A program made the position numbers and the translations under genes. A DNA stretch of 64,000 nucleotides from the IMG/VR virus record IMGVR_UViG_3300023184_004051, positions 32,001 through 96,000 of that record. One strand, given 5' to 3'. The stretch comes from a virus. The notes beneath the pieces are model-generated. The model was not told the origin of the DNA, did no database searches, and saw only the letters and a list, made by a program, of their open reading frames with translations. Below are positions 5 through 59,840 of this stretch, in pieces. Each line of letters begins with the position of its first letter. Within the stretch, counting starts at the first letter, position 1.

Positions 5-2101
5 GTGTCTAGCGATGGCATCGTGATTGACGGTCACCACAACTGGGCGGCGGCAGTTGCCCTGCACGAAGGCTTGGATAGTCACCCCACACTTCCAATC
101 TACCGAGTGGATATGCCCGCTTCCAAACTCATCCCCATTGCCACAGCGTTTGGTGATGCAAAGGGCAATCCCCGTATGGGAATGGTTCGCAAGGCCGAAC
201 TGCGTCGTGTGCTGAAAAAGGCATACGGCAAGAACGCTCACGGGGCTACCAAGTCTATTTTGGAAATGATTTCAGCCCACGCTCGCAAGCGTGTCAAAAA
301 GTCGTTCAACTACACAAACTTCATCCCCAAAAAGGATGAGCAGTCGTGGGGCAACTTAGGTGAAGGCATCTCCGTTCCAAAACAGGAAGCCGCTAGCCCT
401 GCTGATGACTTGGCGCTCCGAGCCTTGAACCTGCGTGAAAAACAGCGTTATGAAAGCGCCGGATTTATGCACGAGCGAGCCGCAGCGGCATATCGAGCGC
501 AGGCTGAAAAAGCAAGTGATGAAGCCGAACGCACATTGCTAGAGAGCAAGGCGAAAGACCAAGACTACGAAGCCAAAGTTGCACATTTCACTGACCAGAT
601 GGGAGAGGGACACTCCCCCTCCGAGGTCAACAAAGGCGACACACCCGGACATCCTTTCCACGGAAACCAATGGACAGGTGGGAAGGGCGGTGGTGAAATG
701 CCTGACAACATTGCCGTTTTCGCCCGCAACCTCAAAGAGTTCTACGACGCTGGTGGAAAAGTAGAGCGCATTGACAACTACGACAAAATGCAGGAAATCC
801 AAAATCAAGTTCAGGACATTATGAGGAAGCCTGAATACAAGCAAATGGATGCTCGTCACCAACAAGGCATCCGCTTCTTAGCCGAAGCCGCCCTTCACGC
901 CAAAGCCGGTGTCAATAACGCAAATAGTGAAAACTATGGCATTACTTCGTCACACTTGTTCGTTGCTCGCGATAAAGACGGCGAGATGGTATCTGCCGTC
1001 AACATCACCACTCACGAAAGTGGCGTTCGTTTGGGCGACCTCAAAGGCCCTGAAGTTCCACACGCCTCTATTGGCTATCTCGGCTCTACGGGAACGATGC
1101 CGGGTGCGGCAACAGCCCTTATGGAGCAGGCGCTCCAACTTGCCGCTGAAAAGGGCTTGACCGTCACCTACGAGACAACCCCTGACAGCCAGCCATACCA
1201 CGACAAGTTGGGTGTCCAAACGCTCAACTACCGAGGTCTACAAGGGTTTTCACCAGAAAGTGCAGCCGAAGTCGCAGCACTTCCAAATCCAAAACCGACC
1301 ATCATCAAGTCCAAAATCACCAAGGGCGATGTGCCGGGTCATCCGTTTCGTGGTAATCAGTGGGAAACAGGGGAAGGCGGTGGTGAAAACCAACGGTTTG
1401 AGCGATTTCCAACGCCTAACGAGGTAGGCGGAGAAGCCCACTTCAACTACATTTGGACCCGTTCACGCAGTTGGTATCCCAACGAAGGTCAAGACCCCAC
1501 AAAAGCCCTTGTTCCAAGAACACCAACTCACGATGATTTGATGAACGCTGCTAGGCAATGGAAGGGCGACCCAAAAGTTCTACGGGCAATGTTGCCAGAG
1601 ATTGTTGGTGGAATAGGCAACCCACCTTGGGTTTCGTCTGTGCAAGAGGATGACCGTGCCGCCTGTGCCGCATTACTCAACGAAGTCACCACGAACGCCC
1701 AAGAAAGCACCGGAACGCTCTGGCGTGGAATGACCCTTGGTAGTTCCAACTCCACGGTAGAGGAAATAATGCAACGCTTCACGGTTGGCGAAAAAACCGA
1801 TGTTCCAATCTCCGGCTTTAGTGAAAACCGCAACCACTCAATGAGGTTTTCTGTCGGCGGGGCGGGGCGTGAACGACAACCGGGGGTTCCGGTAATGTTT
1901 GCCCTTAGTTCGGGCGCACAAGGACTACCGCTAGACGGCAATCTTTATCGTGGGCAGTATGCCTACGAGAAGGAGTGGGTCGTTGGTGGTGAAATGCGAG
2001 TGGACAAGGTTGAGACAATGGGTTCAGGCAACAAGCAATACATCAAGGTTTCTATGACCCAGACACAACCACTAACAGCACCGGAAGGTGGCTTCCGATG
2101 A
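5..2101 (+). CDS. Polyvalent effector-like protein, probably 5'-truncated by the window: ParB/Srx-like N-terminus, GNAT-like domain, C-terminal ARTC-type ADP-ribosyltransferase; two KGDxPGHPFxGNQW tags
   Basis: IDGHHNWAA (ParB/Srx-like). IGYLGSTG..GAATALMEQAL..SQPYHDKLG (GNAT-like). LWRGM / ISGFS / YEKEWVV (R, SxS, ExE ART motifs). Tags at 632-673 and 1322-1363. Confidence 0.7.
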   Translation: MSSDGIVIDGHHNWAAAVALHEGLDSHPTLPIYRVDMPASKLIPIATAFGDAKGNPRMGMVRKAELRRVLKKAYGKNAHGATKSILEMISAHARKRVKKSFNYTNFIPKKDEQSWGNLGEGISVPKQEAASPADDLALRALNLREKQRYESAGFMHERAAAAYRAQAEKASDEAERTLLESKAKDQDYEAKVAHFTDQMGEGHSPSEVNKGDTPGHPFHGNQWTGGKGGGEMPDNIAVFARNLKEFYDAGGKVERIDNYDKMQEIQNQVQDIMRKPEYKQMDARHQQGIRFLAEAALHAKAGVNNANSENYGITSSHLFVARDKDGEMVSAVNITTHESGVRLGDLKGPEVPHASIGYLGSTGTMPGAATALMEQALQLAAEKGLTVTYETTPDSQPYHDKLGVQTLNYRGLQGFSPESAAEVAALPNPKPTIIKSKITKGDVPGHPFRGNQWETGEGGGENQRFERFPTPNEVGGEAHFNYIWTRSRSWYPNEGQDPTKALVPRTPTHDDLMNAARQWKGDPKVLRAMLPEIVGGIGNPPWVSSVQEDDRAACAALLNEVTTNAQESTGTLWRGMTLGSSNSTVEEIMQRFTVGEKTDVPISGFSENRNHSMRFSVGGAGRERQPGVPVMFALSSGAQGLPLDGNLYRGQYAYEKEWVVGGEMRVDKVETMGSGNKQYIKVSMTQTQPLTAPEGGFR

Positions 2102-3465
2102 ACCTCACCAAGTATTACGAATGGGGCTTTGACGAGCCGTTGTTCCCACGAGACGGCTCAATCACCAAGGGCGACCTTCCCGGACACGTATTCCACGGCA
2201 ATCAGTTCGTTGAGGTCGGTGGCGCTGGCACAACCACTTCAGCACGGAAGCCACGAGCCAAATCCCCCACCATCGCTGGTCTACCGAAGGGCTGGAAACT
2301 GAAGTCCAAGGATGGAAGCCGCATTGTCCTGACTTCCAAAAACGGCAACACGGCCATCTTTGCCACCCGCTCACGGGGTTGGAAGCCTGCTGAAAAGTAT
2401 TCGCAGATGGTTTTGGAAACTATCGAGAACCAAACCTCCGGCAAAACTGTCAACTTCGTTGCTGAAGCAAATGTCGGTAGAGATGCACTTGCTTATGTGA
2501 CAAGCGCAGACCCAAATATCGTAAATATGGGGCGCTACTCGGAGGTTGTCCAAACCCTTGACCATCAGCGTGAGCAGTTTGAGAAGCAAGTGACGAATAC
2601 AGCACTTGTTGGCGCAGACTTGTCGCTGGCGCTGATGGAAATGGCAAAGGGAACGCCTGAGCGTGAGGAACTTATCACCAAGATGGCGGAGTTGTATGAC
2701 CAACAGCCACGCACCGAAGCGATGACGAATAACCTCCACAACTCCTGCGCCTCCTTCGTTTCACCACAGAAAATCATTGAGACAATGGTGGCGCACGAAC
2801 TCGGCCACTCGGACTTCTTTTCCGAGGGTCACAAGATTAGTGAAATCTATCCCGCACTCACCGAAGCGGTGCAAGCGGCGGGGGTAGCAAATCGTTGGGC
2901 TATCTCTGGTAGTTATGCTCGTTTCACCGATGCAAGTGCGTGGGAGGCTAGCCAACGGGATGCTTACGCGGAAGTCCTCAGGGGAACACCAAGAAAATAC
3001 ACAGGCTTTGATGTGGGCAACGGGGTCGTTGTTAGCCGTGCTGATTACATTGACTACCGGATGAAGGAGGGGAGCGGAAGTTATCCTGTGAGCGTTTCCA
3101 CCCAAAAAGTATTGCGTGAGATTGGCGTGACGACTTACGGTTCCACCAAACTCCAAGAGGTTGTTGCCGAAGCACGAGCGATGTATTCCGTGCCACAACT
3201 TCCAAAATCAGCCCTGACGATGCGGATTGCCGGAATACTTGGTTGGGATAAGACAAACAAATCTGCTAAACTGTGGTTTATGAAGTCTGAGGATGACCTT
3301 CCACCTGTGAGCGCCAACGAATATTTGGACAAAGACGGCAACTTGATTGCTCGCGTCTTTGACAATGTTGATACCTCGGGCGTTGCCATCACCATCGTCG
3401 GGACAGTCGTGTTCCTGCCTGATGGCACGACGATGAGCCTTGCTGATTACAACGCAACTCACTAA
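2098..3465 (+). CDS. Zincin-like metallopeptidase-domain protein with N-terminal KGDLPGHVFHGNQF tag
   Basis: VAHELGHSDF (HExxH) with distal QEVVAEA. Tag at 2167-2208. ATGA overlap with the upstream ORF. Confidence 0.65.
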   Translation: MNLTKYYEWGFDEPLFPRDGSITKGDLPGHVFHGNQFVEVGGAGTTTSARKPRAKSPTIAGLPKGWKLKSKDGSRIVLTSKNGNTAIFATRSRGWKPAEKYSQMVLETIENQTSGKTVNFVAEANVGRDALAYVTSADPNIVNMGRYSEVVQTLDHQREQFEKQVTNTALVGADLSLALMEMAKGTPEREELITKMAELYDQQPRTEAMTNNLHNSCASFVSPQKIIETMVAHELGHSDFFSEGHKISEIYPALTEAVQAAGVANRWAISGSYARFTDASAWEASQRDAYAEVLRGTPRKYTGFDVGNGVVVSRADYIDYRMKEGSGSYPVSVSTQKVLREIGVTTYGSTKLQEVVAEARAMYSVPQLPKSALTMRIAGILGWDKTNKSAKLWFMKSEDDLPPVSANEYLDKDGNLIARVFDNVDTSGVAITIVGTVVFLPDGTTMSLADYNATH

Positions 3466-3680
3466 CCCCTAAACCGCTACGGGCGTTCACAAAGCCCCCG
3501 CAAGTGCCATTTCACTAGGGAAAACACGCCACCCGTGTTCCAAAGTTGCCATCGAACAATCGTTCGGGTAAAGTATTCCAACCCCCAATGGCTACCCAAA
3601 GGAGGCGTTGTGCTTCACAACACCACTAACAGCAACGGCTACCAAGCCGCCAATGAAGTGAGCAGGGTTGAAATAGAGCC

Positions 3681-4295
3681 TTGTGTGTCCTATCCCTCGT
3701 CAAAGGCAGGCGCGTGGTAGTTGCGGTGCGAGGAATGGCTCTCGCACTCACAGTCTCGCTCTGCATTTTGCTATCGGGAGGAAGTCAGGTTTCACCACCC
3801 GCTTCCGCCACGCCCGAAAACTGCAATCACGGATGTAGTTGGACAATCAACGGTTTGACCTACAAGGTTCCAAACCGAACCTTCAACATCAGGCCGACGA
3901 CGACAACGACAACTCCCCCCATCACCACTACAACGGTTCCACCTGTCACGACAACGACAGTGAAACCGTATGTCGCCCCTCCGGTTGTTCCAAAAGTCAC
4001 TACAACGACTGTCGCCCCAAGCCCCATCAACGGTAATCCCTATGGGGTCACGGCTGCTGATGTGGCTGCGTGGACACGAGTTGCCATTTGTGAGGAAGGT
4101 GGCAACTGGCACATTCGTGGTGGAATGTACTCAGGCGGTCTTGGCATCAGCAACTACAACTGGTCGTATTACTCACGAGGTATGGGCGTTCCTGCCAACG
4201 CTGCTGATGCAACGCCAATCCAACAGATTGCGGTTGCTAAAAAAATCAACGCTGGGTATCAGGTTCCCGACCAATACGGGTGCGCCGCTTGGTGA
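3681..4295 (+). CDS. Secreted Rpf-like (resuscitation-promoting factor) lytic transglycosylase; true start probably 3714-3735
   Basis: Hydrophobic signal-like N-terminus, Thr/Pro linker, WTRVAICEEGGNW..YSGGLGI..W..ADATPIQQIAVA Rpf signature. Confidence 0.8.
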   Translation: MCVLSLVKGRRVVVAVRGMALALTVSLCILLSGGSQVSPPASATPENCNHGCSWTINGLTYKVPNRTFNIRPTTTTTTPPITTTTVPPVTTTTVKPYVAPPVVPKVTTTTVAPSPINGNPYGVTAADVAAWTRVAICEEGGNWHIRGGMYSGGLGISNYNWSYYSRGMGVPANAADATPIQQIAVAKKINAGYQVPDQYGCAAW

Positions 4296-4348: not shown

Positions 4349-6493
4349 GTGCTGAAACCGACAACGGATTTGACCGCCGTAAGCCTCTTTGCAGGGGTTG
4401 GCGGGTTTGACTTGGCATTAGAGCGACAAGGCGTAAAAGTCGTCGCTGCGGTGGAAATAGACAAGAACGCCAGAGGGGTTCTTGCACACCGTTTTCCAAA
4501 CAGCACGCTCTTTCCCGATGTCACGGAGGTCACAGGTGAGCAACTTATTTCAGCAGGATTTGTTCCCGAACGAGGCATCCTCACCGGAGGCTTCCCCTGC
4601 CAAGACCTCAGCGTTGCTGGAAAACGGGCCGGTTTGGCTGGCAAGCGTTCTGGCCTCTTTTGGGAAATCGCTCGCCTCATTGACGAACTCACGCCGCAAT
4701 ACTTCATCCTCGAAAATGTCCCCGGTCTTTTGTCATCTAACAGAGGACAAGACTTTGGAGCCGTTCTCGGGGCGCTGGTTGAGCGCGGGTACGGGGTCAC
4801 CTACCGAGTTTTGGATGCTCAATACTTTGGAGTCCCCCAACGCCGCCGTCGAGTGTTCATTGTCGGAAGTTTTGGAGATACCGGGGCCACAACTAGTGAA
4901 ATACTCGCTCTCTCCGAGGGCTTGTCAGGGTATCTTGAACAGAGCATCAAGAAGGAACAAGAAACTTCCACCACTCCTAAACGCCGCACTAGAAGCGGTG
5001 GCGCAGAAGGAAGCGTGACTTCACCACAAACGCTGGCATTTGACACGCAGTTTGGGTCTAACGCAAATGTGTTTGAGGACATTTCACCAACCCTGAAGGC
5101 TTCGCAGGCAGCGCCAAGTTTCACCGAAGTCGGTATGGAGCCGATTTTCTTTGACAGCGCCACTCACGGGGATGGCGCTCGTATTGCTGAAAAGACCATT
5201 CCAACTTTGACTTCCCGTATGGGAACGGGCGGGAATAACACCCCCCTTGTCGCCTACGCCGACCCAATCATCGGCATTGACCAAGAACTCAATGCCCGTG
5301 AGAACATCATTGGCTCGCTCGTCGCCGGTGCAAATAGCGGAACGCAAATACAGGCAGTTGCCTACTCGGTGCGTGAGGATGCACAGAGCAACACTTTCAG
5401 CGCAACCGAACTCTCGGCAGTCAACGCCTTGCAAGCCCACCAACCATCACCACAAAGTCATCACGCTCAAACCTTCATCGTGGAAGTCGAGCCGACGATT
5501 TTTCCAATCCAAGATGGTCGAGAGATGAACCACCAGCAGAACGGCATCGGCGTGGGTAGTGAAAACGACCCCGCCTACACCCTCCTTGCCACAGGCGGTC
5601 AAAGCATCGCAACAGTTTCGCCCGCAATCACCTCAACCGTTCGTCGCCTCACTCCAAAGGAGTGTGAGCGGCTTCAAGGATTTCCCACCGTAGAAAACAT
5701 TGGTATTATTGAGTGGTGTTCAGACCCTCTAAAGAACTATGTGGATGCGGAAAACCAAAATCCCAAGTCGCCATCACCTGCTTTGAGTGTCGCAAACGAA
5801 CAGCCGAGCGAGACTGCGAAATCTGCGGAAAACATTTCACCTACAAACGCTCATCAAACCGCCGAACCTGCTCTGGTCAATGTGGAAGTCAACTGCGAGG
5901 GCGAAATGCTGGAAATACACAGTCAAGGAAAGTTGATATTGTCTGTGAATACTGCGGAGAAGTCAAGCAGGTCAGCCCATCCTCTGCTAAACGCAGATTT
6001 TGTTCCACGGCTTGTGCTTACATTGCAAACTCTGGGTCTAATAACGCTCAATGGCAAGGTGGCATCACCAACGAGCGAGACAAGTTTGACAACAGTAAAG
6101 AGTGGCGTGCCGTTCGTAAGGCTGTCTGGCAACGAGATGACGCTACTTGCCAAAGATGTCGTATCCGATTTGACCATACAACACCCACCTACCACACCCA
6201 CCACATTGTTCCTTTCGGACACGAACCACTTAGAACAGAACTTACAAACCTTGTGTTGCTCTGTAATCCCTGCCATCATTGGGTTCACTCAAACGCCAAC
6301 CAACGGGGTGACTACTTACAGGTTCCACCTACGGGCGAAGCAACCGTGGACAGAGTTCCGCATTGACGAAAAGAAGGGTTTGATTTCACAAGCCGACGCT
6401 CCCCGCTACAAGCAAATGGGAAATGCCGTTGCTGTTCCCTGTGTCGAATGGATTGTGAAGCGGCTCGTTGAGATTGACAGGGCTACGAGGTGA
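4349..6493 (+). CDS. DNA (cytosine-5) methyltransferase with ~220-codon in-frame insertion between motifs IX and X
   Basis: SLFAGVGG, GGFPCQDLS, ENVPG, QRRRRVF, RRLTPKECERLQGFP ... YKQMGNAVAVP. Confidence 0.9.
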   Translation: MLKPTTDLTAVSLFAGVGGFDLALERQGVKVVAAVEIDKNARGVLAHRFPNSTLFPDVTEVTGEQLISAGFVPERGILTGGFPCQDLSVAGKRAGLAGKRSGLFWEIARLIDELTPQYFILENVPGLLSSNRGQDFGAVLGALVERGYGVTYRVLDAQYFGVPQRRRRVFIVGSFGDTGATTSEILALSEGLSGYLEQSIKKEQETSTTPKRRTRSGGAEGSVTSPQTLAFDTQFGSNANVFEDISPTLKASQAAPSFTEVGMEPIFFDSATHGDGARIAEKTIPTLTSRMGTGGNNTPLVAYADPIIGIDQELNARENIIGSLVAGANSGTQIQAVAYSVREDAQSNTFSATELSAVNALQAHQPSPQSHHAQTFIVEVEPTIFPIQDGREMNHQQNGIGVGSENDPAYTLLATGGQSIATVSPAITSTVRRLTPKECERLQGFPTVENIGIIEWCSDPLKNYVDAENQNPKSPSPALSVANEQPSETAKSAENISPTNAHQTAEPALVNVEVNCEGEMLEIHSQGKLILSVNTAEKSSRSAHPLLNADFVPRLVLTLQTLGLITLNGKVASPTSETSLTTVKSGVPFVRLSGNEMTLLAKDVVSDLTIQHPPTTPTTLFLSDTNHLEQNLQTLCCSVIPAIIGFTQTPTNGVTTYRFHLRAKQPWTEFRIDEKKGLISQADAPRYKQMGNAVAVPCVEWIVKRLVEIDRATR
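4482..5018 (+). CDS. Overprinted alternative-frame polypeptide inside the C5 MTase gene (M.EcoHK31I beta-subunit-like)
   Basis: 178-codon open frame fully nested in the MTase gene. C-terminus SLSEVLE..KYSLSPRACQGILNRASRRNKKLPPLL resembles the nested beta polypeptides of this MTase class (recalled, not searched). Confidence 0.65.
   Translation: MHTVFQTARSFPMSRRSQVSNLFQQDLFPNEASSPEASPAKTSALLENGPVWLASVLASFGKSLASLTNSRRNTSSSKMSPVFCHLTEDKTLEPFSGRWLSAGTGSPTEFWMLNTLESPNAAVECSLSEVLEIPGPQLVKYSLSPRACQGILNRASRRNKKLPPLLNAALEAVAQKEA
5713..6366 (+). CDS. HNH homing endonuclease with N-terminal zinc-finger repeats, nested in another frame of the MTase gene
   Basis: Multiple CxxC/CSxxC motifs, NNAQWQGG, WRAVRKAVWQRDDATCQRC..HHIVP..NLVLLCNPCHHWVH. 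Confidence 0.85.
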   Translation: MVFRPSKELCGCGKPKSQVAITCFECRKRTAERDCEICGKHFTYKRSSNRRTCSGQCGSQLRGRNAGNTQSRKVDIVCEYCGEVKQVSPSSAKRRFCSTACAYIANSGSNNAQWQGGITNERDKFDNSKEWRAVRKAVWQRDDATCQRCRIRFDHTTPTYHTHHIVPFGHEPLRTELTNLVLLCNPCHHWVHSNANQRGDYLQVPPTGEATVDRVPH

Positions 6494-7497
6494 AATCAAC
6501 CATCCTTCTAGGCGATGTTCGGAAGCGCCTTTTGGAAATCCCTGACGAGACAATCCAAACCGTAATCACCTCCCCGCCTTACTTTGGCTTACGGGACTAT
6601 GGGGTAGACGGTCAGATAGGTTTGGAAAAATCACCTGAGGACTTCGTGGATGCACTTGTTGAGTTGTTCCGTGAAGTCCGCCGTGTGCTGAAATCTGATG
6701 GAACAGTCTGGCTCAACTTGGGCGACAGTTATTGGGGCGGTAAGGGTCAGTCTGCGAATGGCGGTGCTGAACACCAAGCGGAGAGAGCGAAGCGTGGCGC
6801 AAGCCTCAACCAAGCGCATCAAACGCTCGGTGGTAAAAACCAAACCCGACCAACCGACGGGAAACACCACACCATCAAGCCCAAAGACCTCATCGGCATC
6901 CCGTGGCGTGTCGCTTTTGCCCTACAGGATGACGGCTGGTATTTGCGCTCAGACATCATTTGGTCAAAACCGAACCCAATGCCTGAAGCAATGAAAGACC
7001 GGCCTACAAAGGCTCACGAGTATCTGTTCTTGCTTTCCAAATCACCAAAGTATTACTACGACCACAATGCCATCAGAGAACCGCTTAGTGAGGCCACAAA
7101 AAAGCGTGACCTTGCCCCAAGGGGGCGCTCCCAAAATGGAGGCGGTAGTGAAAAGAGTATGGCTGGATATTCTTACACACCCGAACTTGGAAATATGACG
7201 AGCAACCCACTAGGGCGCAACCGCCGTTCGGTTTGGAGCATCAACACAAAACCATTCAAGGGCGCTCACTTTGCGGTAATGCCCGAAGCCCTTGTAGAGC
7301 CGTGTGTCCTTGCCGGTTCAGCACAGGGGGACACAGTTCTTGACCCCTTTATGGGAAGCGGAACGGTTGCTGTTGTGGCGAACCGTTTTGGAAGGAACTT
7401 CGTGGGAACCGAACTCAACCCTGCATATGCTGAAATCGCCAAGACGAGGATTGTGGATGCAGCCCCCTTACTCAATGAGGTGAACATCGTTGACTAA
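6490..7497 (+). CDS. DNA amino-methyltransferase (N4-C/N6-A, beta class)
   Basis: TSPPY, IIWSKPNPMPE, HFAVMP, VLDPFMGSGT. Confidence 0.9.
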   Translation: MKSTILLGDVRKRLLEIPDETIQTVITSPPYFGLRDYGVDGQIGLEKSPEDFVDALVELFREVRRVLKSDGTVWLNLGDSYWGGKGQSANGGAEHQAERAKRGASLNQAHQTLGGKNQTRPTDGKHHTIKPKDLIGIPWRVAFALQDDGWYLRSDIIWSKPNPMPEAMKDRPTKAHEYLFLLSKSPKYYYDHNAIREPLSEATKKRDLAPRGRSQNGGGSEKSMAGYSYTPELGNMTSNPLGRNRRSVWSINTKPFKGAHFAVMPEALVEPCVLAGSAQGDTVLDPFMGSGTVAVVANRFGRNFVGTELNPAYAEIAKTRIVDAAPLLNEVNIVD

Positions 7498-8593
7498 TGC
7501 CCGTATCCTCATTGGCGATGCCCGCAAGCGTCTTGCTGAAATCCCTGATGGCTCAGTTCGTTGCGCCGTGACTTCACCACCCTATTTTGGATTGCGTGAC
7601 TACGGGACTTCAGATTACGAAGGTGGCGACCCGAACTGCGAACACACGATTTCAGCGACAGATGCGGATGGGAAAGCGGTCTTTGCCGAGCGTGTGACCC
7701 GTGGTGATAGGTCTGCTTGCCTGAAGTGTGGGGCTACCCGTGTTGACAGCCAAATGGGTTTGGAACAAACTCCTGCCGCCTATGTTAGTGAAATGGTTGG
7801 CTTGTTCCGTGAGGTCAAGCGTGTTCTTGCTGATGACGGAACCCTGTGGCTCAACCTCGGAGACTCCTATGCGGGAGGTGGTGGTGGAAACTACAACAAG
7901 ACCGGCATCTCCCAAGCGGGCGGTCAGCACATCGCCAATGTCCGCAATCGCCCAGATTGGTTGCAAAACGCTGGTGTAAAGCCGAAGGACTTGATGGGTG
8001 TTCCTTGGCGAGTGGCTCTCGGATTACAGCAAGACGGTTGGTACCTCCGCAGCGACATCATTTGGCACAAGCCCAATCCGATGCCTGAGAGCGTCACCGA
8101 CAGGCCGACCAAAGCCCACGAGTATGTCTTTCTCCTTTCCAAATCACCTAAATACTTCTACGACTACGAAGCGGTCAAAGAGGATGGCGTGATGCCCGCC
8201 GGATACAAAGCGGCAAAGGGAAGTGCTGAAAGGTATGGGATGGAGGGCGTGAACGCTCGACCACCGGAATACAAGGTCTATGACGGGAAGCGGAACCGCA
8301 GGTCGGTTTGGACAATAAACACCAAGCCGTTCAAGGGAGCGCATTTTGCCGTGATGCCAGAGGCGTTGGTGGAACCGTGCGTCTTGGCAGGCTCGGAAAT
8401 CGGGGATACGGTGCTTGACCCTTTCACCGGAAGTGGGACTGTAGCCGTCGTAGCAATGCGTTTTGGAAGGCACTTCATCGGCACAGAACTGAACCCTGAG
8501 TATGGTGAAATCGCTCGCACACGGATTGAGGGCGACCAACCTCTAATGAACAATGTTGTTTTGGACTTCAGCACAAAGGCGACAAATGACTGA
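7490..8593 (+). CDS. Second DNA amino-methyltransferase (beta class), paralog of the upstream gene
   Basis: TSPPY, IIWHKPNPMPE, VLDPFTGSGT, extra C..CxxC insert after motif IV. Confidence 0.9.
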   Translation: MTNARILIGDARKRLAEIPDGSVRCAVTSPPYFGLRDYGTSDYEGGDPNCEHTISATDADGKAVFAERVTRGDRSACLKCGATRVDSQMGLEQTPAAYVSEMVGLFREVKRVLADDGTLWLNLGDSYAGGGGGNYNKTGISQAGGQHIANVRNRPDWLQNAGVKPKDLMGVPWRVALGLQQDGWYLRSDIIWHKPNPMPESVTDRPTKAHEYVFLLSKSPKYFYDYEAVKEDGVMPAGYKAAKGSAERYGMEGVNARPPEYKVYDGKRNRRSVWTINTKPFKGAHFAVMPEALVEPCVLAGSEIGDTVLDPFTGSGTVAVVAMRFGRHFIGTELNPEYGEIARTRIEGDQPLMNNVVLDFSTKATND

Positions 8594-11420: not shown

Positions 11421-12197
11421 GTGGCACGCAAACTAGTGAAACTCAACATCAAGGAGACATCGGGTGTTGACCACCCGGCGCATCTCACTGAGGGTTGGGT
11501 AGTAATGAAGTCTGCAACTCCCTCCGATGTGACTGCGGTTCTTGACGAACTGCGCTTTGACGATGAGGTGGGTTCGCCTACTGAAATCGTTGAGGCTTCC
11601 AAGTCGGTATCCACCGATGAGGTAATCACAACCCCTGTTTCCAAGGAGGAAACTATGTCTTTCACCCCAGAGGTGTCGGCCCCAGAGGTCGTCATCATTC
11701 CTGAGGCTGCGAGCGAGGCTGAAATCATCAAGGCTATGCCTGCGGCAATCCGCAAGATGCTTGACGACGCTTCAGCAAACGCTGACGCAGCACTCCGTAA
11801 GGCCGCTGCAAGTGAAGCCGCCCTCATTGCCGAGCGTGAGGCTCGCGCCGACGAGGCCGCTGTTATCAAGGCTTCGCAATGGTCGCACCTTACCTTTGAC
11901 CCATCCATCGTCGGCCCTGCGCTTCGTCGCCTTGCTGAGTCCGATGGTGTTCTTGCGAACGAAATCGTGAAGGCACTTGACAGCGCCAACGAACTCGCCG
12001 CAACCAACGCAGTTTTCACTGAGGTCGGTTCAGAAGCCCCTGTTGCTGCTGACGACGCTTTCAGCAAGATGGAGAGCCTTGCCAAGTCACTCGTGGCTGA
12101 CGGCGTTGCCCCTTCGTTTGAGAGCGCCCTTATGTCAGTTGCTCAGAGCAACCCTGACCTCTACACCGCTTACATCAACGAAAAGGCAGGTCGCTAA
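11421..12197 (+). CDS. Capsid scaffolding/maturation protein
   Basis: ETSGVDHPAH..EGWVVMKS N-terminus, acidic Ala-rich coiled coil, C-terminal NPDLY..Y; directly upstream of decoration and capsid genes; AAGGAG RBS. Confidence 0.7.
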   Translation: MARKLVKLNIKETSGVDHPAHLTEGWVVMKSATPSDVTAVLDELRFDDEVGSPTEIVEASKSVSTDEVITTPVSKEETMSFTPEVSAPEVVIIPEAASEAEIIKAMPAAIRKMLDDASANADAALRKAAASEAALIAEREARADEAAVIKASQWSHLTFDPSIVGPALRRLAESDGVLANEIVKALDSANELAATNAVFTEVGSEAPVAADDAFSKMESLAKSLVADGVAPSFESALMSVAQSNPDLYTAYINEKAGR

Positions 12198-12649
12198 TGG
12201 CTTGGGAACAAAATCCATACGCAGTCAAGATTTCACTGGTCGCTAACGGTGACCTTTCGTCATCGCAATACAAGTTCGTGAAGTTGGATGGAAACGTGCT
12301 TACCGGCACTCCTGCCTGCGTTGTCGCTACCGCCGCAACGGACTACTGCATCGGCATCCTTCAGAACCAGCCTAAGAGCATCACCTCAGGTGGTTTCACT
12401 AACTACGGTGAGGCCGAAGTGACCATCTCGGGTATCACGAAGGTTGTTGCAGGTGCAACGAACATCGCCATCGGCGCTCGTTTGTCGGTTGACTCATCGG
12501 GTCGTGCCGTTCCTGTGACTGCCGCTGCCGCAACTACCAACTCCAAGTACATCTTTGGTACCGCACTCACGGCTTCGGGAAGTTCGGGAGCCACTGGAGA
12601 CATCATCACGATGGTCGTTTCCACCACCGCCGCCGTCTTGTCGGCATAG
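12197..12649 (+). CDS. Capsid decoration/cement protein
   Basis: Lies between scaffold and MCP; GILQNQP..GEAEVT..GITKVVAG..G.RL..D..GRAV pattern. Confidence 0.7.
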   Translation: MAWEQNPYAVKISLVANGDLSSSQYKFVKLDGNVLTGTPACVVATAATDYCIGILQNQPKSITSGGFTNYGEAEVTISGITKVVAGATNIAIGARLSVDSSGRAVPVTAAAATTNSKYIFGTALTASGSSGATGDIITMVVSTTAAVLSA

Positions 12650-12667
12650 TCAGGAAAGGACTAGAAA

Positions 12668-13675
12668 ATGCCATCACCTAACGTAAACAACGTTCACATT
12701 GACGCAATCTTGACCAACATCTCGGTTGCGTACTTGCAGAACACCAACAACTTTGTCGCTGACAAGGTTTTCCCAATCGTCCCTGTGGACAAGAAGTCAA
12801 ACATCTACTTCAAGTACACGAAGGATGACTGGTTCCGTGACGAGGCTCAGCGTCGTGCTGATGGAACTGCCTCGGCAGGTTCCGGCTACGGCTTGACCAC
12901 CGACAACTACCTTGCGGATGTCTACGCATTTCACAAGGACATCGGTGACCAGACCCGCGCCAACGCCGACAACCCTCTCAACCCGGATATGGAAGCGACG
13001 CAGTTCGTCACCCAACGCCTCCTTCTCCGTCGTGAGGTTCAGTGGGCCGCCGACTACTTCACCTCCGGTATTTGGGGAACCAACATCACGGGTGTCGCAT
13101 CATCAACCAACTCCGCACCTGCCGCAACGCAGGCTGTGAAGTGGAGCGACTACACCACGGGTGTCACCTACACCTCAAACCCAATCGTGGATGTTGAGTT
13201 GGGCAAGACCACCGTGCTTCAGAACACCGGATTTGAGCCGAACACGCTTGTTCTCTCTTACGCCGTGTTCCAAAAGTTGAAGGCTCACCCAATCCTTGTT
13301 GACCGCTACAAGTACACCCAAGCCGGTGCAATCGTGACCGAGGACTTGCTCGCTGCCCTGTTCGGCATTGACCGTGTTCTCGTCGCAAAGGCTGTTGTCA
13401 ACCCATCCAACGAAGGTCAGACCGCCGCGTCTTACAGTTTCACGGCTGGAAACAACGCCCTGCTCTGCTACGTTGCCCCGAACCCGGGTCTTATGACCCC
13501 ATCAGCCGGATACACCTTTATGTGGACTGGCGTTTCGGGTGGCCTCGGTACGACGGTTGGCGTTAGCCGCTTCCGTATGGAGGAACTGAAGGCAGACCGA
13601 GTTGAAGGTGAAATCGCCTTTGACAACAAGGTTGTCGCCGCAGACCTCGGCTACTTTTGGACTAGTATTATCTAA
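12668..13675 (+). CDS. Major capsid protein
   Basis: HIDAILTNISVAY..FVADKVFPIVPV pattern typical of this MCP family; strong RBS; followed by a terminator. Confidence 0.85.
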   Translation: MPSPNVNNVHIDAILTNISVAYLQNTNNFVADKVFPIVPVDKKSNIYFKYTKDDWFRDEAQRRADGTASAGSGYGLTTDNYLADVYAFHKDIGDQTRANADNPLNPDMEATQFVTQRLLLRREVQWAADYFTSGIWGTNITGVASSTNSAPAATQAVKWSDYTTGVTYTSNPIVDVELGKTTVLQNTGFEPNTLVLSYAVFQKLKAHPILVDRYKYTQAGAIVTEDLLAALFGIDRVLVAKAVVNPSNEGQTAASYSFTAGNNALLCYVAPNPGLMTPSAGYTFMWTGVSGGLGTTVGVSRFRMEELKADRVEGEIAFDNKVVAADLGYFWTSII

Positions 13676-17630: not shown

Positions 17631-20600
17631 ATGGCTACCCTTGTCAGCGCCTTTGGGTCCGCTAGTAGTGCGGCACTAACGGCTAGCGCCGCTTTCACTG
17701 TCCCCTATACCAACCTTCTAAGCGTTGCCCCTGCTGCGGGTGATTATGTGTTCGTTGCCCTTTGGCTGACTCGTAATGCCGCCGCCACGCAAGCACAGTC
17801 ATCAAACGGCACTTACGCCTCGGTAGCGTGTGGCTCGGTCTACCTGACCTGTATGGAGAACACCTCGGTTCCGACCAACCTCTCGGCAACCTCAACGACG
17901 CTATTTCACCAATATGGCGTTCCGGGCAACCTTTCCGCCAATGCCGTGAACCTTGCTGTTTTTGGAGCGCCTTACACGGCAGGTATGGCACGAGGCATCA
18001 CCGTCACAGGGTTCAACGCCGGTGCTGCTACCGCAGTCCTTCTCTGCACCGCTATGGCAGTTCAGGGCATCTACACGCCCCCAACAAACCCTCGGACAAC
18101 GTGGTGTAAAACCATTGAGAACGGTGGAGTGGTTGACACGACATCGGGTTCCGGTTTGGCTTGGGCGAGCAATGGCGTGACCCCAAGTATCACCGCATTT
18201 GGAAGCACGAAGGTCAATAACAGCAACTTGACTTCCGCCATCGTTGATGATGTTGTAGCCGGTGCGGTGACGGGCATCTTGAACCTTGGCTCTGCTGGCT
18301 ACCAGACCACAGATTTTTCCACTAGGTATTCCAATCAAGAAGGTCTTTTTATTGGGAACCTAGATGTCATTGGCTTTGGCGGCAATGGTGGCTCAGCAAA
18401 CGTCATCGTCACAAACTCCAACAACCCCGTTCCGCCGGCCCTTTCAGGTGGCCCTAGCACTTGGACTGGCAAATACCTTGGGATTGGACAAGCGATATCG
18501 GGTGCGGATATTCCACAAGACACTTACATCACAGGCTTCAGTTATGACCCGAACTACTTGGGCTTTTTAGGCCCCACTTGGTTCGTCAACACCAATAATC
18601 TCGTCACCCCCTCCGGTCAGTTCTGGGCGGGTGCTGAACAGCCTGTCCTTGTCGTGATGTTCACCAACAACTCAACGACTACGGCTGCTACAACTTCGGT
18701 TGGAAACACCGGAGGAACCGTCAACAACGGTCTGACCTACCTTGACCCCCAAGGGTCAACGATGTATTTCACCTCATTTGGGTCGGCATCGGGAACTGTG
18801 GGAACGGGAACAAACACCTCGTTGCCAACTGCGGGCAGGGTGGTTGTGCCGACTTATGGTGGAAACACCACTCTTTCGTGGACTTCCAAACCGTCTAGCA
18901 CCTCCCTTGCGGGTTGCACCGCTCCATCATCACCACTTGATAAAGACCTCTATCAGTTGTGGATGGACAATGTGCAAACCGGCTCGCAGTTTTGGGACTG
19001 CACCCCCGTCGTGACGAATAGTGGAAACGCAACCTCTCCTGCTAGCGCCCCTCCGGGCATTGAGACAGTCAAGACAGTTCTTGCTACAACCACAACGGGT
19101 TTCCAAACCGGAACTTTGGTGATGGCGTATGGGGCGAACCGTTCAGGAATAAGTCCGGTATCCCTTTTCGGACACCTTCGGCACGGCTCGGTATCATCAA
19201 CCAACTTTGGATTTGGAGCGGCTTTTTCCTTCAAGCCCAACAAGTCATCCATCATTGGCACAGTGGGCGAAGTGGTGGAAACAAGAACAACTCCCGGCTC
19301 TGGCGTGTCTCGTGGGGCTATCCGCTCATCGGAAGTCATTGAGTTGGACACAGGTGAAAGTAGCGGCGCTGCTCGCACTTTGCCAAAAACCTCGGAACCA
19401 TCACTATTGGCAAAAGGTGAAATCCAAAACTCAAAACAGAGCAATGTGGCATCTCAGGTCAATGAAGTGCTTTCAGCACAAGACAAGCGTGGCACAAATA
19501 TTGGCGAGAAGGGCGCTGCAACTTATGGAACATTGTTCCAAGAAGTTGTTAGAGCCGTGTTATTCAGCAAATCTAATACGGTCACGGAACTGCTTGACAC
19601 GCAAAGCGTGAGAGCGCAAACGGCATATCGCCTGAGCGCCGTTAGTGAAATCTTGTCCTCAACCAGCCAGAAAACCCTGCTGCTCAACACCCTCACCAAA
19701 GCCGTCACATTTGCTCGCGGTGGGTATGTTCCAAAACTGAACAGCATCACCGGACTCGGCATCTTGGGTCAAGAAGCATTGGGCTATGGCAACTTCTACC
19801 CGACGAACAACTGGTACAACACCACTCTCGCCAAGAACTTCACGAAAACCTATGTCGAGGCGGGGGCGGTTTATCTGCTTTCCACTACCGAAAACACGAA
19901 GGCTACGATACGAAATGTCATATCAAGCGTTGCTGATGTTCCAACCTCAGCCAGCCAGCGAGCAGTCACAATCCCACGCTCTGCTGCGGTTGCTGAAGCG
20001 CCGACAACCACATCTCAACGGTCTACCATCCGTTCCTTTGTCGCCGCCGTTGCTGAAATCTTGTCAGGAGAGAACACACGCAGCGTCAACAAGGGCAAAG
20101 TAAGCGAGGTCAACCTCACTCCAAGTGGTGAAAACCAACGACAAGTGGCGGGCAATGTCGTCGGCTCGGTTGCTGAAGCCCCCAAGAGCGCAAACGGAAC
20201 TTCCAAAACTCTCGCTCGCATCACCACTGTTGTTGAAGCACTCAACACGGTGGCAACCAAAGTCCTCGTCATAAATCGTGCCTCTGAAGTTGCTGAAAAG
20301 CCATCAGAAAGCAATACGAAGTCATCGGCATTTACTCGGTCAAGCCAAGTCTCGGAACGACCCACAACCACATCGCAGCGTTCAGCAAGTCATTCATTTG
20401 CCACAACTGCCAACCTGTTGCTATCAGCAACCGTCACTCGTTCTGTTGGCGTGGCGAGGGCAAGTTCGGTTTACAAGGCGATTTACACCACCGCCTTTGC
20501 CATTCTCATCAAACTGACAAGCGGGTTCGTTGCGACCTTCACGGAATACCCAAAGACTGAGGGTTTCACCGAATATCCAAAGACGGAAACGATGATGGAT

Positions 20601-20684
20601 GCCACAAATGCCGTTTTCACTACCTCAAATACGGCAATCGGTTTTCAGGATGATGGGGTAGCCTCTTACACGGAAGGACAATAA
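17631..20684 (+). CDS. Large virion structural (fibre-like) protein with C-terminal ~23-aa degenerate repeats
   Basis: 1017 aa, T/S/G-rich; repeated RSxxVxExxxxxSQR units. Confidence 0.6.
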   Translation: MATLVSAFGSASSAALTASAAFTVPYTNLLSVAPAAGDYVFVALWLTRNAAATQAQSSNGTYASVACGSVYLTCMENTSVPTNLSATSTTLFHQYGVPGNLSANAVNLAVFGAPYTAGMARGITVTGFNAGAATAVLLCTAMAVQGIYTPPTNPRTTWCKTIENGGVVDTTSGSGLAWASNGVTPSITAFGSTKVNNSNLTSAIVDDVVAGAVTGILNLGSAGYQTTDFSTRYSNQEGLFIGNLDVIGFGGNGGSANVIVTNSNNPVPPALSGGPSTWTGKYLGIGQAISGADIPQDTYITGFSYDPNYLGFLGPTWFVNTNNLVTPSGQFWAGAEQPVLVVMFTNNSTTTAATTSVGNTGGTVNNGLTYLDPQGSTMYFTSFGSASGTVGTGTNTSLPTAGRVVVPTYGGNTTLSWTSKPSSTSLAGCTAPSSPLDKDLYQLWMDNVQTGSQFWDCTPVVTNSGNATSPASAPPGIETVKTVLATTTTGFQTGTLVMAYGANRSGISPVSLFGHLRHGSVSSTNFGFGAAFSFKPNKSSIIGTVGEVVETRTTPGSGVSRGAIRSSEVIELDTGESSGAARTLPKTSEPSLLAKGEIQNSKQSNVASQVNEVLSAQDKRGTNIGEKGAATYGTLFQEVVRAVLFSKSNTVTELLDTQSVRAQTAYRLSAVSEILSSTSQKTLLLNTLTKAVTFARGGYVPKLNSITGLGILGQEALGYGNFYPTNNWYNTTLAKNFTKTYVEAGAVYLLSTTENTKATIRNVISSVADVPTSASQRAVTIPRSAAVAEAPTTTSQRSTIRSFVAAVAEILSGENTRSVNKGKVSEVNLTPSGENQRQVAGNVVGSVAEAPKSANGTSKTLARITTVVEALNTVATKVLVINRASEVAEKPSESNTKSSAFTRSSQVSERPTTTSQRSASHSFATTANLLLSATVTRSVGVARASSVYKAIYTTAFAILIKLTSGFVATFTEYPKTEGFTEYPKTETMMDATNAVFTTSNTAIGFQDDGVASYTEGQ

Positions 20685-20685
20685 A

Positions 20686-21027: not shown

Positions 21028-21031
21028 TGAA

Positions 21032-21945: not shown

Positions 21946-21957
21946 GAGAGTAGTGAA

Positions 21958-22772: not shown

Positions 22773-23005
22773 ACGAACTTGACCTCGTAATCCAAAGCAT
22801 CAAAGCGGCCAAACAAGCCTGCCTTGCATCAGTTCACGCATTGGAGGCAGTCGAGCGGCTTCTCGGTGCTGATGACATTTCCAAAACTCAGCCAGTCGAG
22901 GCTGCCGAGGCATCCGGTTGTCAGCACAAAGATGCGGCTAAAGTCACCACATCGGAAGGTGTGTTTCTTGTCTGCGGATGTGGCGAACAAAAAGAAATCC
23001 AATAA
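22769..23005 (+). CDS. Hypothetical protein with CxH..CxC
   Basis: GTGA overlap with upstream gene. Confidence 0.5.
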   Translation: MNELDLVIQSIKAAKQACLASVHALEAVERLLGADDISKTQPVEAAEASGCQHKDAAKVTTSEGVFLVCGCGEQKEIQ

Positions 23006-56159: not shown

Positions 56160-56519
56160 TTAGAGCGTGTTGCCCGCAGCGTTGTCGGTAAAGCCTGTGT
56201 TCACAGCGGCAGTTGCACTCTCGGCGGCGCTAGAGGCATCAGCAGCCATCTCAATCGCATCTTTGTGCGTGTCGTCATCTTTGCCTGATGTGATTTCAGC
56301 AGCCTTGTTGTGTGCCGTAGCCGCTTGGTTGTGCAGACTTGCGGGGAAAATAAACCCCTTCTTGGTCAGGATTTCAGCAACCTTGCGATGATACTTCGCC
56401 TTTTGCTTGTGATGAGCCGCTTGCTCTCTCGACTTCTCGACGGTTTCACCAGCGATTTTCAACACACCCACTGAAGCCCACGAGGGCAACAGAGCGTCGG
56501 TGGCGAAAGGATTTGTCAT
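56160..56519 (-). CDS. His/Ala-rich helical protein with NPF..LL N-terminus (related to the tagged cargo proteins)
   Basis: MTNPFATDALL; HNQAATAHNKAAE; TAGACT-N6-ATG start on the minus strand. Confidence 0.6.
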   Translation of the reverse strand: MTNPFATDALLPSWASVGVLKIAGETVEKSREQAAHHKQKAKYHRKVAEILTKKGFIFPASLHNQAATAHNKAAEITSGKDDDTHKDAIEMAADASSAAESATAAVNTGFTDNAAGNTL

Positions 56520-58008: not shown

Positions 58009-58010
58009 TT

Positions 58011-58688
58011 GTGTCAGGCTTCACCACTGAGGCATTGCTCTACCCTCTTGCCAAAGGGGACATCAGAGGACACGCCTTCCACGGGAACCAGTACGAAGTG
58101 GTCGCTAGCGAGGGCCAAAGCGAAAGCAGACCGCCGACTGGACAGTTCCAACTCTCAGGTAGTGAAATCCGTGAGTGGGTCAAGTCATTTCGTGAAGAAC
58201 GCCACGTTGCGGGTATTCTCACACAAGAAGCCATCCTTGACTCAGGAGCCGTCGCTCTTTCCAAAATGCTCGGGTTTGACAAGCCGGCCCAGCAACCCAA
58301 AACGCCACCCAGCCGAGAACCAAACCTCTATCGGGGATGCAGTCCTGAAGGTGCTGAAAGCCTGTTGCGACCTTTAGAACACTACGGGAGTGGCGGTGGG
58401 GCGGCTTATGGCAACGGGGTTTATTCCGCAGAGAACCGTTTGGTGGCGGAGCAATACAACGTCGGCGCAATGGTGAAAATCTGGCTTGACCCCGATACAA
58501 CGATTGCAGATGGCGAGGATGTGGAAAAGGCTTACAGGGCATTTGATGTCATCTTGCCTAACGAGTTTTCATCGTTCGCTTATCAGCCCGTCAATGCAGC
58601 ACTTCTCTTTGGCTACCAAGCCATTGAATGGGGTGGAACATTCGTCATTCTTGACCGTTCCAAAATGACTATCAGCACCGAGTCGTGA
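58011..58688 (+). CDS. Tagged protein with putative ADP-ribosyltransferase (PARP/diphtheria-toxin-like) domain
   Basis: KGDIRGHAFHGNQY tag; LYRG..YGNGVYSA..AEQY..GYQAI..FVILDRS. Confidence 0.6.
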   Translation: MSGFTTEALLYPLAKGDIRGHAFHGNQYEVVASEGQSESRPPTGQFQLSGSEIREWVKSFREERHVAGILTQEAILDSGAVALSKMLGFDKPAQQPKTPPSREPNLYRGCSPEGAESLLRPLEHYGSGGGAAYGNGVYSAENRLVAEQYNVGAMVKIWLDPDTTIADGEDVEKAYRAFDVILPNEFSSFAYQPVNAALLFGYQAIEWGGTFVILDRSKMTISTES

Positions 58689-58736
58689 CAGGCGGATTGG
58701 GCAAGTCGTAGTAGCATTAGCGGAAGGAGGTTCCCT

Positions 58737-59231
58737 ATGTCTATCAACCCTTTCCATTACGAAAATCTGCTGAAATCTGCTGGCAACTACCCCATTGCAA
58801 AGGGAGATTTGCCCGGACACCCGTTTCGGGGGAACCAGTACCAAACTCTCAACTCTGCGCTAGACCACATTTCACAAACGGCTTATCGGAGCGGCGGGAG
58901 GATTGAGAGGGACTCGGTTGCCGATGCCCACCGTGCAGCGGCAAAGGAGCATTACAGCAGAGCAGCCGGACTCCTTCAGCACGCCCAAAACCAAGTTGAC
59001 GCTGGATTGTCAAACACGACTGAGCAATACAAGCAAGATGTTCACGATGCGATTGGCGCTCATCTGCTTGCTGGAAAAGCGCACGATGCCGCCGCTGATG
59101 AAAACTCACGAGGGGTGGCTTATGGCCCCGGAGAGGTAAAGCCGTACAACGCTGAACAATCTGCATCCGCCTCAAAGACGGCTTTACGCCGTTCGGGTGA
59201 AGCACGAGCCACTACAGAACTTCTTTCCTAA
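58737..59231 (+). CDS. Tagged His/Ala-rich helical protein
   Basis: MSINPF..LLKS..NYPIAKGDLPGHPFRGNQY; AHRAAAKEH..AHDAAA; AAGGAGG RBS. Confidence 0.7.
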   Translation: MSINPFHYENLLKSAGNYPIAKGDLPGHPFRGNQYQTLNSALDHISQTAYRSGGRIERDSVADAHRAAAKEHYSRAAGLLQHAQNQVDAGLSNTTEQYKQDVHDAIGAHLLAGKAHDAAADENSRGVAYGPGEVKPYNAEQSASASKTALRRSGEARATTELLS

Positions 59232-59243
59232 GTAAGTAGTGGA

Positions 59244-59840
59244 ATGTCTGCCAATCCTTTCCAAACCAGCGAGTTACTGAAATCGCTATCAAACTACCCC
59301 GTTTCCAAAGGTGGAGACTTACCCGGTCACGAGTTTCACGGAAACCAACACACAGGTGGCATTGGTGGTGGTGGTGGGGATGCCCGTCAGTCTGACCCCG
59401 GGCGCAACAGCAATCCGGGTCGGAACCAAGCCAGCACCCAAAGCAACGGACTTGGAAGCAAAATCCGTGCCAAACTCTCCCAAATCAACCATTTCGGTGC
59501 TACGAAAGAGGAATGGGATAAAAAACAGGCAGCCGCCGACAAGATAAGTAGGGCGCACCACGCGGCAGAGGCAGAGAAGGAACGTAGGATAAACAACGAG
59601 TTGGCTTACCACGACCGCCTCGTGCAGGTCGCTGACAAATACAAAGAAGAATGGCGACGGACTGGTGACAAAAGGGCGCTTGACAAACACGACGAACTGA
59701 AAGCGGAGTTCCACGCAGGTAAGCACTTGGCCTTCACCTTGAACACAGACAAAGAGCGCAAATACGGCACGAACATAGACTTCTCGGTGGGTGAAGAAAT
59801 CACACCAGACAAAATGCCCAAGTATGTCCCCTTCTCGTGA
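59244..59840 (+). CDS. Tagged helical protein
   Basis: MSANPF..LLKS..NYPVSKGGDLPGHEFHGNQH. Confidence 0.7.
   Translation: MSANPFQTSELLKSLSNYPVSKGGDLPGHEFHGNQHTGGIGGGGGDARQSDPGRNSNPGRNQASTQSNGLGSKIRAKLSQINHFGATKEEWDKKQAAADKISRAHHAAEAEKERRINNELAYHDRLVQVADKYKEEWRRTGDKRALDKHDELKAEFHAGKHLAFTLNTDKERKYGTNIDFSVGEEITPDKMPKYVPFS

Follow-up and report, generated by a model that had tools for sequence, protein, structure and literature searches.

Bacteriophage T4 carries on its internal proteins IPI-III and on Alt a capsid targeting sequence that is cut by the prohead protease gp21 (PMC3012670, PMC9026906). In phage P1, the DarB protein has an N-terminal packaging signal of 30 residues, with no consensus among the N-termini of the Dar proteins (PMC9024508). 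The polyvalent proteins are multi-domain effectors of phages and conjugative elements, for which packaging, processing and injection have been predicted (Iyer, Burroughs, Anand, de Souza and Aravind 2017, PMC5512222; PMC9503650). Here we describe a short peptide tag in a 64,000-nucleotide stretch of DNA of an uncultured freshwater phage; this stretch (the window) corresponds to bases 32001-96000 of the 108,670-bp contig IMGVR_UViG_3300023184_004051, rated 87% complete. Three aspects of this tag appear to be new: it is a conserved, portable header common to thousands of proteins; it has a two-part build in which a lineage-specific site is followed by a universal retained core; and the residue at this site is linked to the family of the head protease.

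Six copies of the tag, all on the plus strand and in frame, are present in the window at the positions given in a preliminary description of this sequence:

632..673, + strand, tag copy 1 (KGDTPGHPFHGNQW), followed by a Gly-rich linker
1322..1363, + strand, tag copy 2 (KGDVPGHPFRGNQW), followed by a Gly-rich linker
2167..2208, + strand, tag copy 3 (KGDLPGHVFHGNQF)
58053..58094, + strand, tag copy 4 (KGDIRGHAFHGNQY)
58800..58841, + strand, tag copy 5 (KGDLPGHPFRGNQY)
59307..59351, + strand, tag copy 6 (KGGDLPGHEFHGNQH, with one additional Gly), followed by a Gly-rich linker

These copies are spread over five open reading frames (ORFs), one of which (2-2101) holds two. The pattern GH.F.GNQ had no match in 50 shuffles of the window. 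The six copies are 68% identical as DNA and 76% identical as residues, and the earlier remark that their codons differ is correct, with 58% of identical residues using different codons. Because identical residues are so often differently encoded, it is the peptide that is conserved and under selection, and the differing codons rule out a DNA repeat as the origin of the tag. Two other parts of the preliminary description stand only in part. A Gly-rich linker follows three of the six window copies, but not the other three. The proposed division into two loci is accurate for the window, whereas the whole contig has 22 tag copies in about 17 ORFs, arranged in three clusters (contig 21.5-34.2 kb, 90-91.3 kb and 97-98.7 kb).

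Two tandem tag pairs with a spacing of 22 residues are located at contig 23940-24026 and 25880-25966, with H-T-V taking the place of x-K ahead of G-D in the leading copy of both pairs. This tandem arrangement recurs in IMG/VR ORFs with a spacing of 23. There are also two additional hydrophobic-x-K-G-G-P-E sites that lack the GH.F.GNQ core, in the ORFs at contig 22470-24377 (residue 436) and 25673-27610 (residue 19); these could be protease sites on their own or a header of a second type.

The tag takes the form [VIL]-x-K-G-D-x-x-G-H-x-F-[RH]-G-N-Q-[YWH] and is followed by a flexible linker. The consensus from IMG/VR is [VIL]-x-K-G-D-x-x-G-H-P-F-[RH]-G-N-Q-[YWH]-T-x-G, with Gly-rich sequence thereafter. 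A degenerate DNA pattern for GHPFRGNQ identified at least 120 IMG/VR loci, where about 3 are expected by chance according to our own estimate from the base content of the pattern and an assumed collection size, and the loci among the matches listed contain 302 tags in 223 ORFs. The profile search that had been proposed in the preliminary description was carried out with 65 tags against 1.84 billion representative proteins. At E<=1e-3 it yielded 2,146 clusters, a number that falls to 495 at E<=1e-10 and to 81 at E<=1e-30; the longest protein has 3,461 residues, and as many as nine tags occur in one protein.

Tags are also present in prophages. Among 185,579 bacterial and archaeal genomes the pattern has 50 matches, 34 of them bare and 16 of them full prophage tags, where we estimate a chance expectation of about 35 from the pattern and the collection size. 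Chance or a low-complexity repeat is ruled out as the source of the tag, since shuffled sequence gave no match and full tags are clearly distinct from the bare chance matches. Of ten prophage tags that were scanned, three belong to Portal_Mu-tag-effector fusions from Verrucomicrobia, including a metagenome-assembled genome of Akkermansia muciniphila. Four others belong to DarA_N or DarA_C proteins from Beta- and Gammaproteobacteria, two of which also have InPase, one of these together with ddrB-ParB. Cultivable candidate carriers of such prophages are Ideonella livida TBM-1 and Hydromonas duriensis DSM 102852.

Cultured carriers of the tag are rare or have been missed. A tblastn search of 50,697 phage records with the 39-residue leader and tag returned six records, and the sole clear copy is that of Xanthomonas phage Rb1 (PQ569993), where the tag is in an “internal head protein” and the gene cluster also has DarA-N, metallopeptidase and giant ATPase genes. 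No match to window positions 1-4000 was found in the same records by megablast, and no tag is present near the portal of Arthrobacter phage Laroye or of a faecal phage record, the nearest cultured portal relatives. The small tagged proteins have no match in Pfam (E<=0.1), PHROGs (E<=0.01) or NCBIfam (E<=0.1), and searches of 8.4 million papers gave nothing relevant for tag motif strings and nothing useful for “XkdF” plus cleavage. The motif is therefore absent from the family collections and literature searched, in keeping with the earlier statement that it is not a described family.

Every tag stands at the head of a module. Of 201 ORFs, 89 have it within 45 residues of the start, and the others have it internally at module joints. 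No tag is C-terminal: even at the 5th-10th percentile, 108-117 residues follow the last tag. Tabulation of the domains beside the tag, another check proposed at the outset, revealed both head proteins and diverse effectors. Head domains in tagged ORFs are XkdF (six ORFs), Mu_F (four, of 117 ORFs), Portal_Mu (two) and S78 (two). Effector domains include zeta toxin, ART-PolyVal, ADPrib_exo_Tox, Arr, PARP, PBECR1, Acb1, GNAT, HipA-like, PI3/4-kinase-like, topoisomerase IB, NUDIX and InPase.

The idea of a portable tag on unrelated payloads is further borne out by shuffled modules. In one relative (L059), the GNAT module is directly followed by the zincin-like module in a single ORF of 1586 amino acids, whereas in the window an ADP-ribosyltransferase (ART) cassette and a stop/start separate the two. 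Another relative (L018) has the GNAT module joined to a homologue of the 225-amino-acid protein of the window. Likewise, the head-protease ORF of this phage matches that of its closest relative at 83% identity, except that it has an inserted cassette made up of a tag and about 130 residues. Such comparisons indicate that modules recombine at tags. The tag region itself is predicted to be disordered (predicted local distance difference test score [pLDDT] of 30-37 in both structure models), as would be expected for a linear motif. The unrelated payloads, the linker after the tag and this predicted disorder together rule out that the tag is part of a folded catalytic domain.

The expected tie to head and packaging genes was also found, in that tagged ORFs form clusters that lie between the portal/protease and scaffold/capsid genes or adjoin terS. 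The portal, capsid or protease type of this phage is present at 48 of the 120 motif-anchored loci, which agrees in part with the earlier expectation of one specific head module; HK97-, P22- and T4-type head genes also adjoin tags. A tag bound to one portal lineage is ruled out, because there are relatives with a similar portal and protease that have no tag.

The preliminary description had placed the boundary after K, leaving products that begin GDxPGH, and two kinds of comparative evidence support this position. The first comes from start codons. In an exhaustive IMG/VR scan, M-G-D-x-x-G-H-x-F-x-G-N-Q was found in 13 cases plus one with a GTG start, on four contigs, and nearly all of these are true gene starts, wherein the upstream stop overlaps or abuts the ATG. 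With M shifted upstream by one more codon there are 14 matches, in all of which the methionine is internal, and M in place of the tag G had no match in the scan. An initiator methionine that precedes glycine is normally removed. Proteins of the M-G-D lineage would therefore begin with G-D, as would products cut after K. No head genes were found on the contigs of this lineage, the three contigs that hold nearly all of the cases being 24-72% complete.

The second kind of evidence comes from the residue that precedes G-D (the pre-GD residue), which varies between lineages (K, R, L, F, D, E or A) but is uniform within a phage. Within a locus, the pair identity at this position is 0.92, compared to 0.62 when shuffled, and positions further upstream are much less constrained. 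In 119 proteins with at least three tags, the commonest pre-GD residue has a share of 0.91 (K in 86 of these proteins, L in 20, F in five, A in five and E in two). Among contigs chosen by motif alone, XkdF is present in 13 of 14 with K or R at this position, including all seven that are at least 90% complete, and one further R-type contig has a weak XkdF match (14 of 15), while Mu-like_Pro is present in none of the 14. XkdF is absent from all 11 non-basic contigs, and the two L-type contigs have Mu-like_Pro at 106 bits. The association of the pre-GD residue with XkdF has a Fisher p-value of 1.6e-6, or 2e-4 when only matches above the Pfam cut-off are used, although both values overstate the link because the contigs are phylogenetically non-independent. 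Searches for S78, S77, S49 and DUF2213 gave no matches on non-K contigs, where S77 and DUF2213 are uninformative in that they were also silent in control genomes.

In close relatives, the protease module itself is preceded by conserved hydrophobic-x-K sites, and in this phage the tag-plus-module cassette is inserted exactly at the hydrophobic-x-K site ahead of the protease. The start codons and the pre-GD residue thus fit a predicted cut immediately before G-D, with the tag staying on the mature module. The comparative link to putative cleavage at hydrophobic-x-K/R by the co-encoded XkdF protease is strong. Structure prediction was uninformative on this point. An AlphaFold2 model of the 693-amino-acid protease ORF, in which docking of the tag in cis might have been seen, has a mean pLDDT of 49.9 and leaves the tag and cassette unmodelled, and a complex prediction with a 45-residue tag alignment and the XkdF domain has a score of 0.01, which speaks neither for nor against binding.

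What we observed directly is the tag, its modular use, the head genes around it and a lineage-specific pre-GD residue that tracks the protease family. From these sequence features we infer cleavage, packaging and injection of the tagged proteins, and the explanation that we favour as a whole, with somewhat better than even confidence, is as follows. The motif would be a two-part module header in phages with capsid-carried enzymes. Its upstream part (hydrophobic-x-K in this phage) would be a cleavage site for the phage’s own head-maturation protease, here of XkdF type and encoded beside the portal. A cut immediately before G-D would leave the downstream 13 residues (G-D-x-x-G-H-x-F-R/H-G-N-Q-Y/W) at the N-terminus of the product, with a flexible linker between them and the payload. 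Cassettes of tag plus payload would be shuffled among stand-alone genes, long polyproteins and fusions with portal, MuF or protease. The approximately 17 proteins with 22 tags are probably made together with the head proteins and enclosed in the procapsid, where they would be cut into single modules and then delivered with the DNA.

Putative capsid loading of the tagged proteins is supported by gene context, whereas the notion that the retained 13-mer is the loading address is a working guess. The core is unchanged across phages with different protease, portal and capsid families, and it is kept in the M-G-D lineage, which suggests a role beyond protease recognition. Loading into the procapsid would be the most economical such role, given the head context and the precedents of T4 and P1 (PMC9024508). 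It is possible, though we are inclined to doubt it, that the 13-mer serves as a universal address, recognised by a single conserved receptor in phages whose heads otherwise differ.

Several observations weigh against the explanation that we favour. Because tags also lie beside HK97-, P22- and T4-type head genes, the core is not fitted to one capsid or portal family, and it is doubtful that it docks on the capsid protein. Tags are mostly missing from phages whose XkdF domain is 56-66% identical, so that the protease does not need them. Approximately a tenth of the tags in XkdF phages have neither K nor R, and most of these belong to a variant with a GGPGSG insert. In the E-F, E/V-L and L-D lineages, no protease family was found, even on one contig that is rated 100% complete, and the link between pre-GD residue and protease could partly reflect shared ancestry of the contigs. 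Finally, the second tag cluster (window 58-59.8 kb) is located among small genes near ParB and SNF2 genes.

A serious alternative, albeit one that we consider unlikely, is that the 13-mer is an address used after injection, directed to a conserved partner such as the incoming DNA or a host machine, and that the upstream site only separates modules. A near-invariant core across different portal, capsid and protease families would suit a universal partner, the core in M-G-D-start genes would work without leader or cleavage, and modules fused to portal or MuF are tagged even though they are already anchored to the head. However, no candidate partner was found, the stand-alone tagged proteins would need another route into the capsid, and a loading signal would account just as well for the strong association with head and packaging genes. 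The tracking of the protease family by the pre-GD residue and the location of tags at module joints could also be explained if the entire motif were nothing but a recognition element of the head protease, with the remainder as a functionless scar. We view this as quite improbable, as the same core occurs with XkdF, with Mu-like_Pro and with neither, and at least 14 genes of the M-G-D lineage keep it intact with nothing upstream to cut off. Moreover, head proteases usually read far fewer than fourteen residues, and the fourteen that are conserved here exceed this reading.

The position of the second cluster outside the head module, among small genes beside ParB and SNF2 helicase genes, could mean that tagged proteins are cytoplasmic polyproteins and small proteins, produced either late or early and processed in the cell, where the tag would serve assembly or regulation, rather than being virion cargo. 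This is very unlikely in our view, since portal, MuF and head-protease fusions place tagged modules inside the capsid by construction, clusters 1 and 3 are in the head and packaging region, and the tag is carried by homologues with DarA and DdrB domains, which are head-internal in P1 (PMC5512222, PMC9024508). We give least credence to the proposal that the tag is self-cleaving, with its D, H, N and Q residues breaking the bond before G-D without a protease. Polar residues of these kinds are seen in self-processing motifs, and the boundary coincides exactly with the edge of the motif. Nevertheless, the protease family is tracked by the pre-GD residue, and the core persists in the M-G-D lineage, where there is nothing to cleave. 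The motif is also predicted to be disordered and resembles no known self-cleaving module in structure or sequence.

The tagged ORFs of the window and their modules, together with one gene that lacks the core, are:

2..2101, + strand, ORF1, the last 699 codons of a polyvalent-type ORF of 1248 codons that starts at contig 30355 and has three tags
674..1321, + strand, GNAT-like module (weak), from a sub-threshold match to Acetyltransf_1
1364..2098, + strand, predicted ART module of the R-S-E (exoenzyme) type, from language-model features and sequence motifs
2098..3465, + strand, ORF of 455 amino acids with a 23-residue leader, tag copy 3, a linker and a putative zincin-like module
56160..56519, - strand, gene of 119 amino acids with an N-terminus like the NPF...LL leader of cluster-2 genes, without the GH.F.GNQ core
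58011..58688, + strand, ORF of 225 amino acids with a 14-residue leader, tag copy 4 and an ART-like fold of the PARP/diphtheria-toxin clade (weak)
58737..59231, + strand, ORF of 164 amino acids with a 21-residue leader, tag copy 5 and a payload
59244..59840, + strand, ORF of 198 amino acids with a 21-residue leader, tag copy 6, a Gly-rich linker and a payload

The part of ORF1 in the window consists of the end of a ParB-like segment, a helical region, a tag, the GNAT-like module, a second tag and the ART module. In the complete 1248-codon ORF, which matches phrog_2859, three tags delimit at least four segments (a weak kinase-like match, the part with phrog_2859 and ParB-like similarity, the GNAT-like module and the ART module). 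Several unrelated effector domains are thus joined in one polypeptide, and other ORFs of the contig have two to four tags.

The payload labels of the preliminary description differ in how well they hold. The ART label for the C-terminal module of ORF1 is supported by language-model features, with a score of 0.92 to ADPrib_exo_Tox clusters, and there are candidate elements comprising an R at 1718-1729 (LWRG), an S-x-S region at 1811-1828 and an E-x-E at 1964-1978; no Pfam or PDB sequence match was found for this module. The GNAT label is weak, as matches of the window module and two homologues to Acetyltransf_1 have E values of 0.046, 0.17 and 0.098. The putative zincin label derives solely from HELGH at 2794-2808. 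The PARP-like label for the 225-amino-acid protein is also weak: the model has a pLDDT of 68, and its weak Foldseek matches are nearly all catalytic domains of PARP, tankyrase and exotoxin A, with an anti-CRISPR protein and a cyanophage pre-ejectosome chain as other matches near the top. PDB sequence searches with four payloads revealed no significant match. The best Foldseek match of the 225-amino-acid protein is the chain 9k3a_B from the pre-ejectosome of cyanophage A4 (E 1.1e-3, low TM-score), a capsid-internal ejection protein, and this is a lead only. From the 119-amino-acid gene, which has a similar leader and no core, it appears that leader and core may be separable.

The head module begins upstream of the window with a Mu-type portal (contig 18578-20221), followed by the 693-amino-acid ORF whose C-terminal part is the XkdF-type serine protease (PF14550, 58 bits). 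Eight tagged ORFs come after the protease ORF and extend into the window (to 3465). The order of genes is portal, XkdF protease ORF, tagged ORFs, scaffold and capsid protein, with a transglycosylase, three DNA methylases and exonucleases between the cargo cluster and the capsid genes. The module is closed (11421..13675) by:

11421-12197, + strand, probable scaffold
12197-12649, + strand, small head protein (phrog_673)
12668-13675, + strand, major capsid protein (phrog_1005)

The second tag cluster (window 58011-59840) comes after a double-ParB gene and the SNF2 helicase, and the third (contig 96.9-99.3 kb) ends right before terS, with terL next. The large terminase (contig 101981-103568) is present as two overlapping ORFs of 321 and 209 amino acids that correspond to the N- and C-terminal halves of terL families, which could be due to a frameshift, an intron or an assembly error. 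In the protease ORF (contig 20382-22463), an N-terminal domain (residues 1-60) is modelled at a pLDDT above 90, and there are Cys-rich stretches and, ahead of the protease, a long poly-Ser tract whose length is highly variable among relatives. In the middle of the tagged cargo cluster there is an untagged Dps/ferritin-like gene (contig 25208-25666; PF00210, E 3.5e-14), which is kept at this place in six related loci (up to 69% identity). Directly after this cluster, window positions 3681-4295 encode an Rpf-type transglycosylase-like domain (PF06737) with a Thr/Pro-rich linker. We take this domain to be mostly actinobacterial, which hints at the type of host. A C5 cytosine methylase of 714 amino acids (window 4349-6493) has PF00145 in two separated stretches, indicating a large insertion, and is followed by two N6/N4-type methylases (6490-8593).

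If the favoured explanation is true, a 14-residue peptide would be a sequence-only marker of capsid-carried, injected proteins, and more than 2,100 protein clusters, mostly unannotated, could be flagged as candidate early-acting effectors. Candidates that can be named include ADP-ribosyltransferases, nucleases, kinases, an anti-CBASS enzyme and Dar-type anti-restriction domains. The residue before G-D would offer a testable rule for the cut sites of different head-protease families, and, being portable, the tag might serve for loading proteins of choice into the capsids of phages, a use to which signals from T4 and P1 have already been put. For the evolution of phage polyproteins, tag-headed cassettes would be units that shuffle between free-standing genes and fusions with portal, MuF or protease. 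Should the 13-mer also be a universal address, any protein that carries it would be packaged in the capsids of thousands of unrelated phages or delivered from them, and each phage would add only its own protease site upstream.

Encapsulin cargo-loading peptides are mostly C-terminal and bind a defined pocket of the shell. Like the tag, they are short conserved peptides with a flexible linker, and they address diverse enzymes into a shell of the HK97 fold; unlike them, the phage tag lies strictly on the N-terminal side of its module. Polymorphic toxins of temperate phages that are anchored by MuF were reportedly described by Jamet et al. in 2017. MuF fusions are also described in PMC9503650. 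These proteins resemble the tagged ones in that variable C-terminal toxin-like domains are brought to the capsid by a head-protein anchor. However, what the tagged proteins have in common is no folded anchor domain but a peptide of 14 residues, and Phage_Mu_F (PF04233) has no match in the tagged ORFs of the window or contig.

As in the T4 system, the signal is short, is found on unrelated proteins that include an ADP-ribosyltransferase, and is combined with a probable head-protease site; it is near the N-terminus in 89 of 201 ORFs and internal in the others. T4 cargo is injected with the DNA, and the same is probable for the tagged proteins. The T4 signal is removed by the prohead protease and is confined to T4-like phages, whereas the conserved part of the tag is apparently retained, because the predicted cut is upstream of the core and M-G-D genes keep the core. 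Moreover, the tag is repeated inside polyproteins and is common to phages with different head-gene families. The Dar proteins of P1 are likewise head-internal anti-restriction proteins whose packaging signal is N-terminal, and the tag is carried by prophage homologues with DarA_N and ddrB-ParB and by the Rb1 “internal head protein”, although P1 is not among the six records that were returned by the tag search of the phage collection.

The polyvalent proteins are a further related system. As those papers present them, they share with the tagged proteins their ART, GNAT, ParB, metallopeptidase, nuclease and kinase-like modules, and their genes likewise accompany those of portal, MuF and head protease or form fusions with them; the ART-PolyVal, PBECR1/2, InPase, DarA_N and ddrB-ParB families all occur in tagged proteins. 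The main text of PMC5512222 has neither “GNQ” nor “linker” and describes no repeated junction motif, and processing by a zincin-like metallopeptidase is proposed there, whereas here the junction residue tracks a serine head protease and the tag also heads many small single-module genes. The tagged ORFs of this phage are phage-encoded and adjoin genes of virion head proteins, tagged fusions to Portal_Mu, Mu_F and XkdF occur elsewhere, and the tagged proteins fit the polyvalent-protein concept as it is set out in PMC5512222 and PMC9503650.

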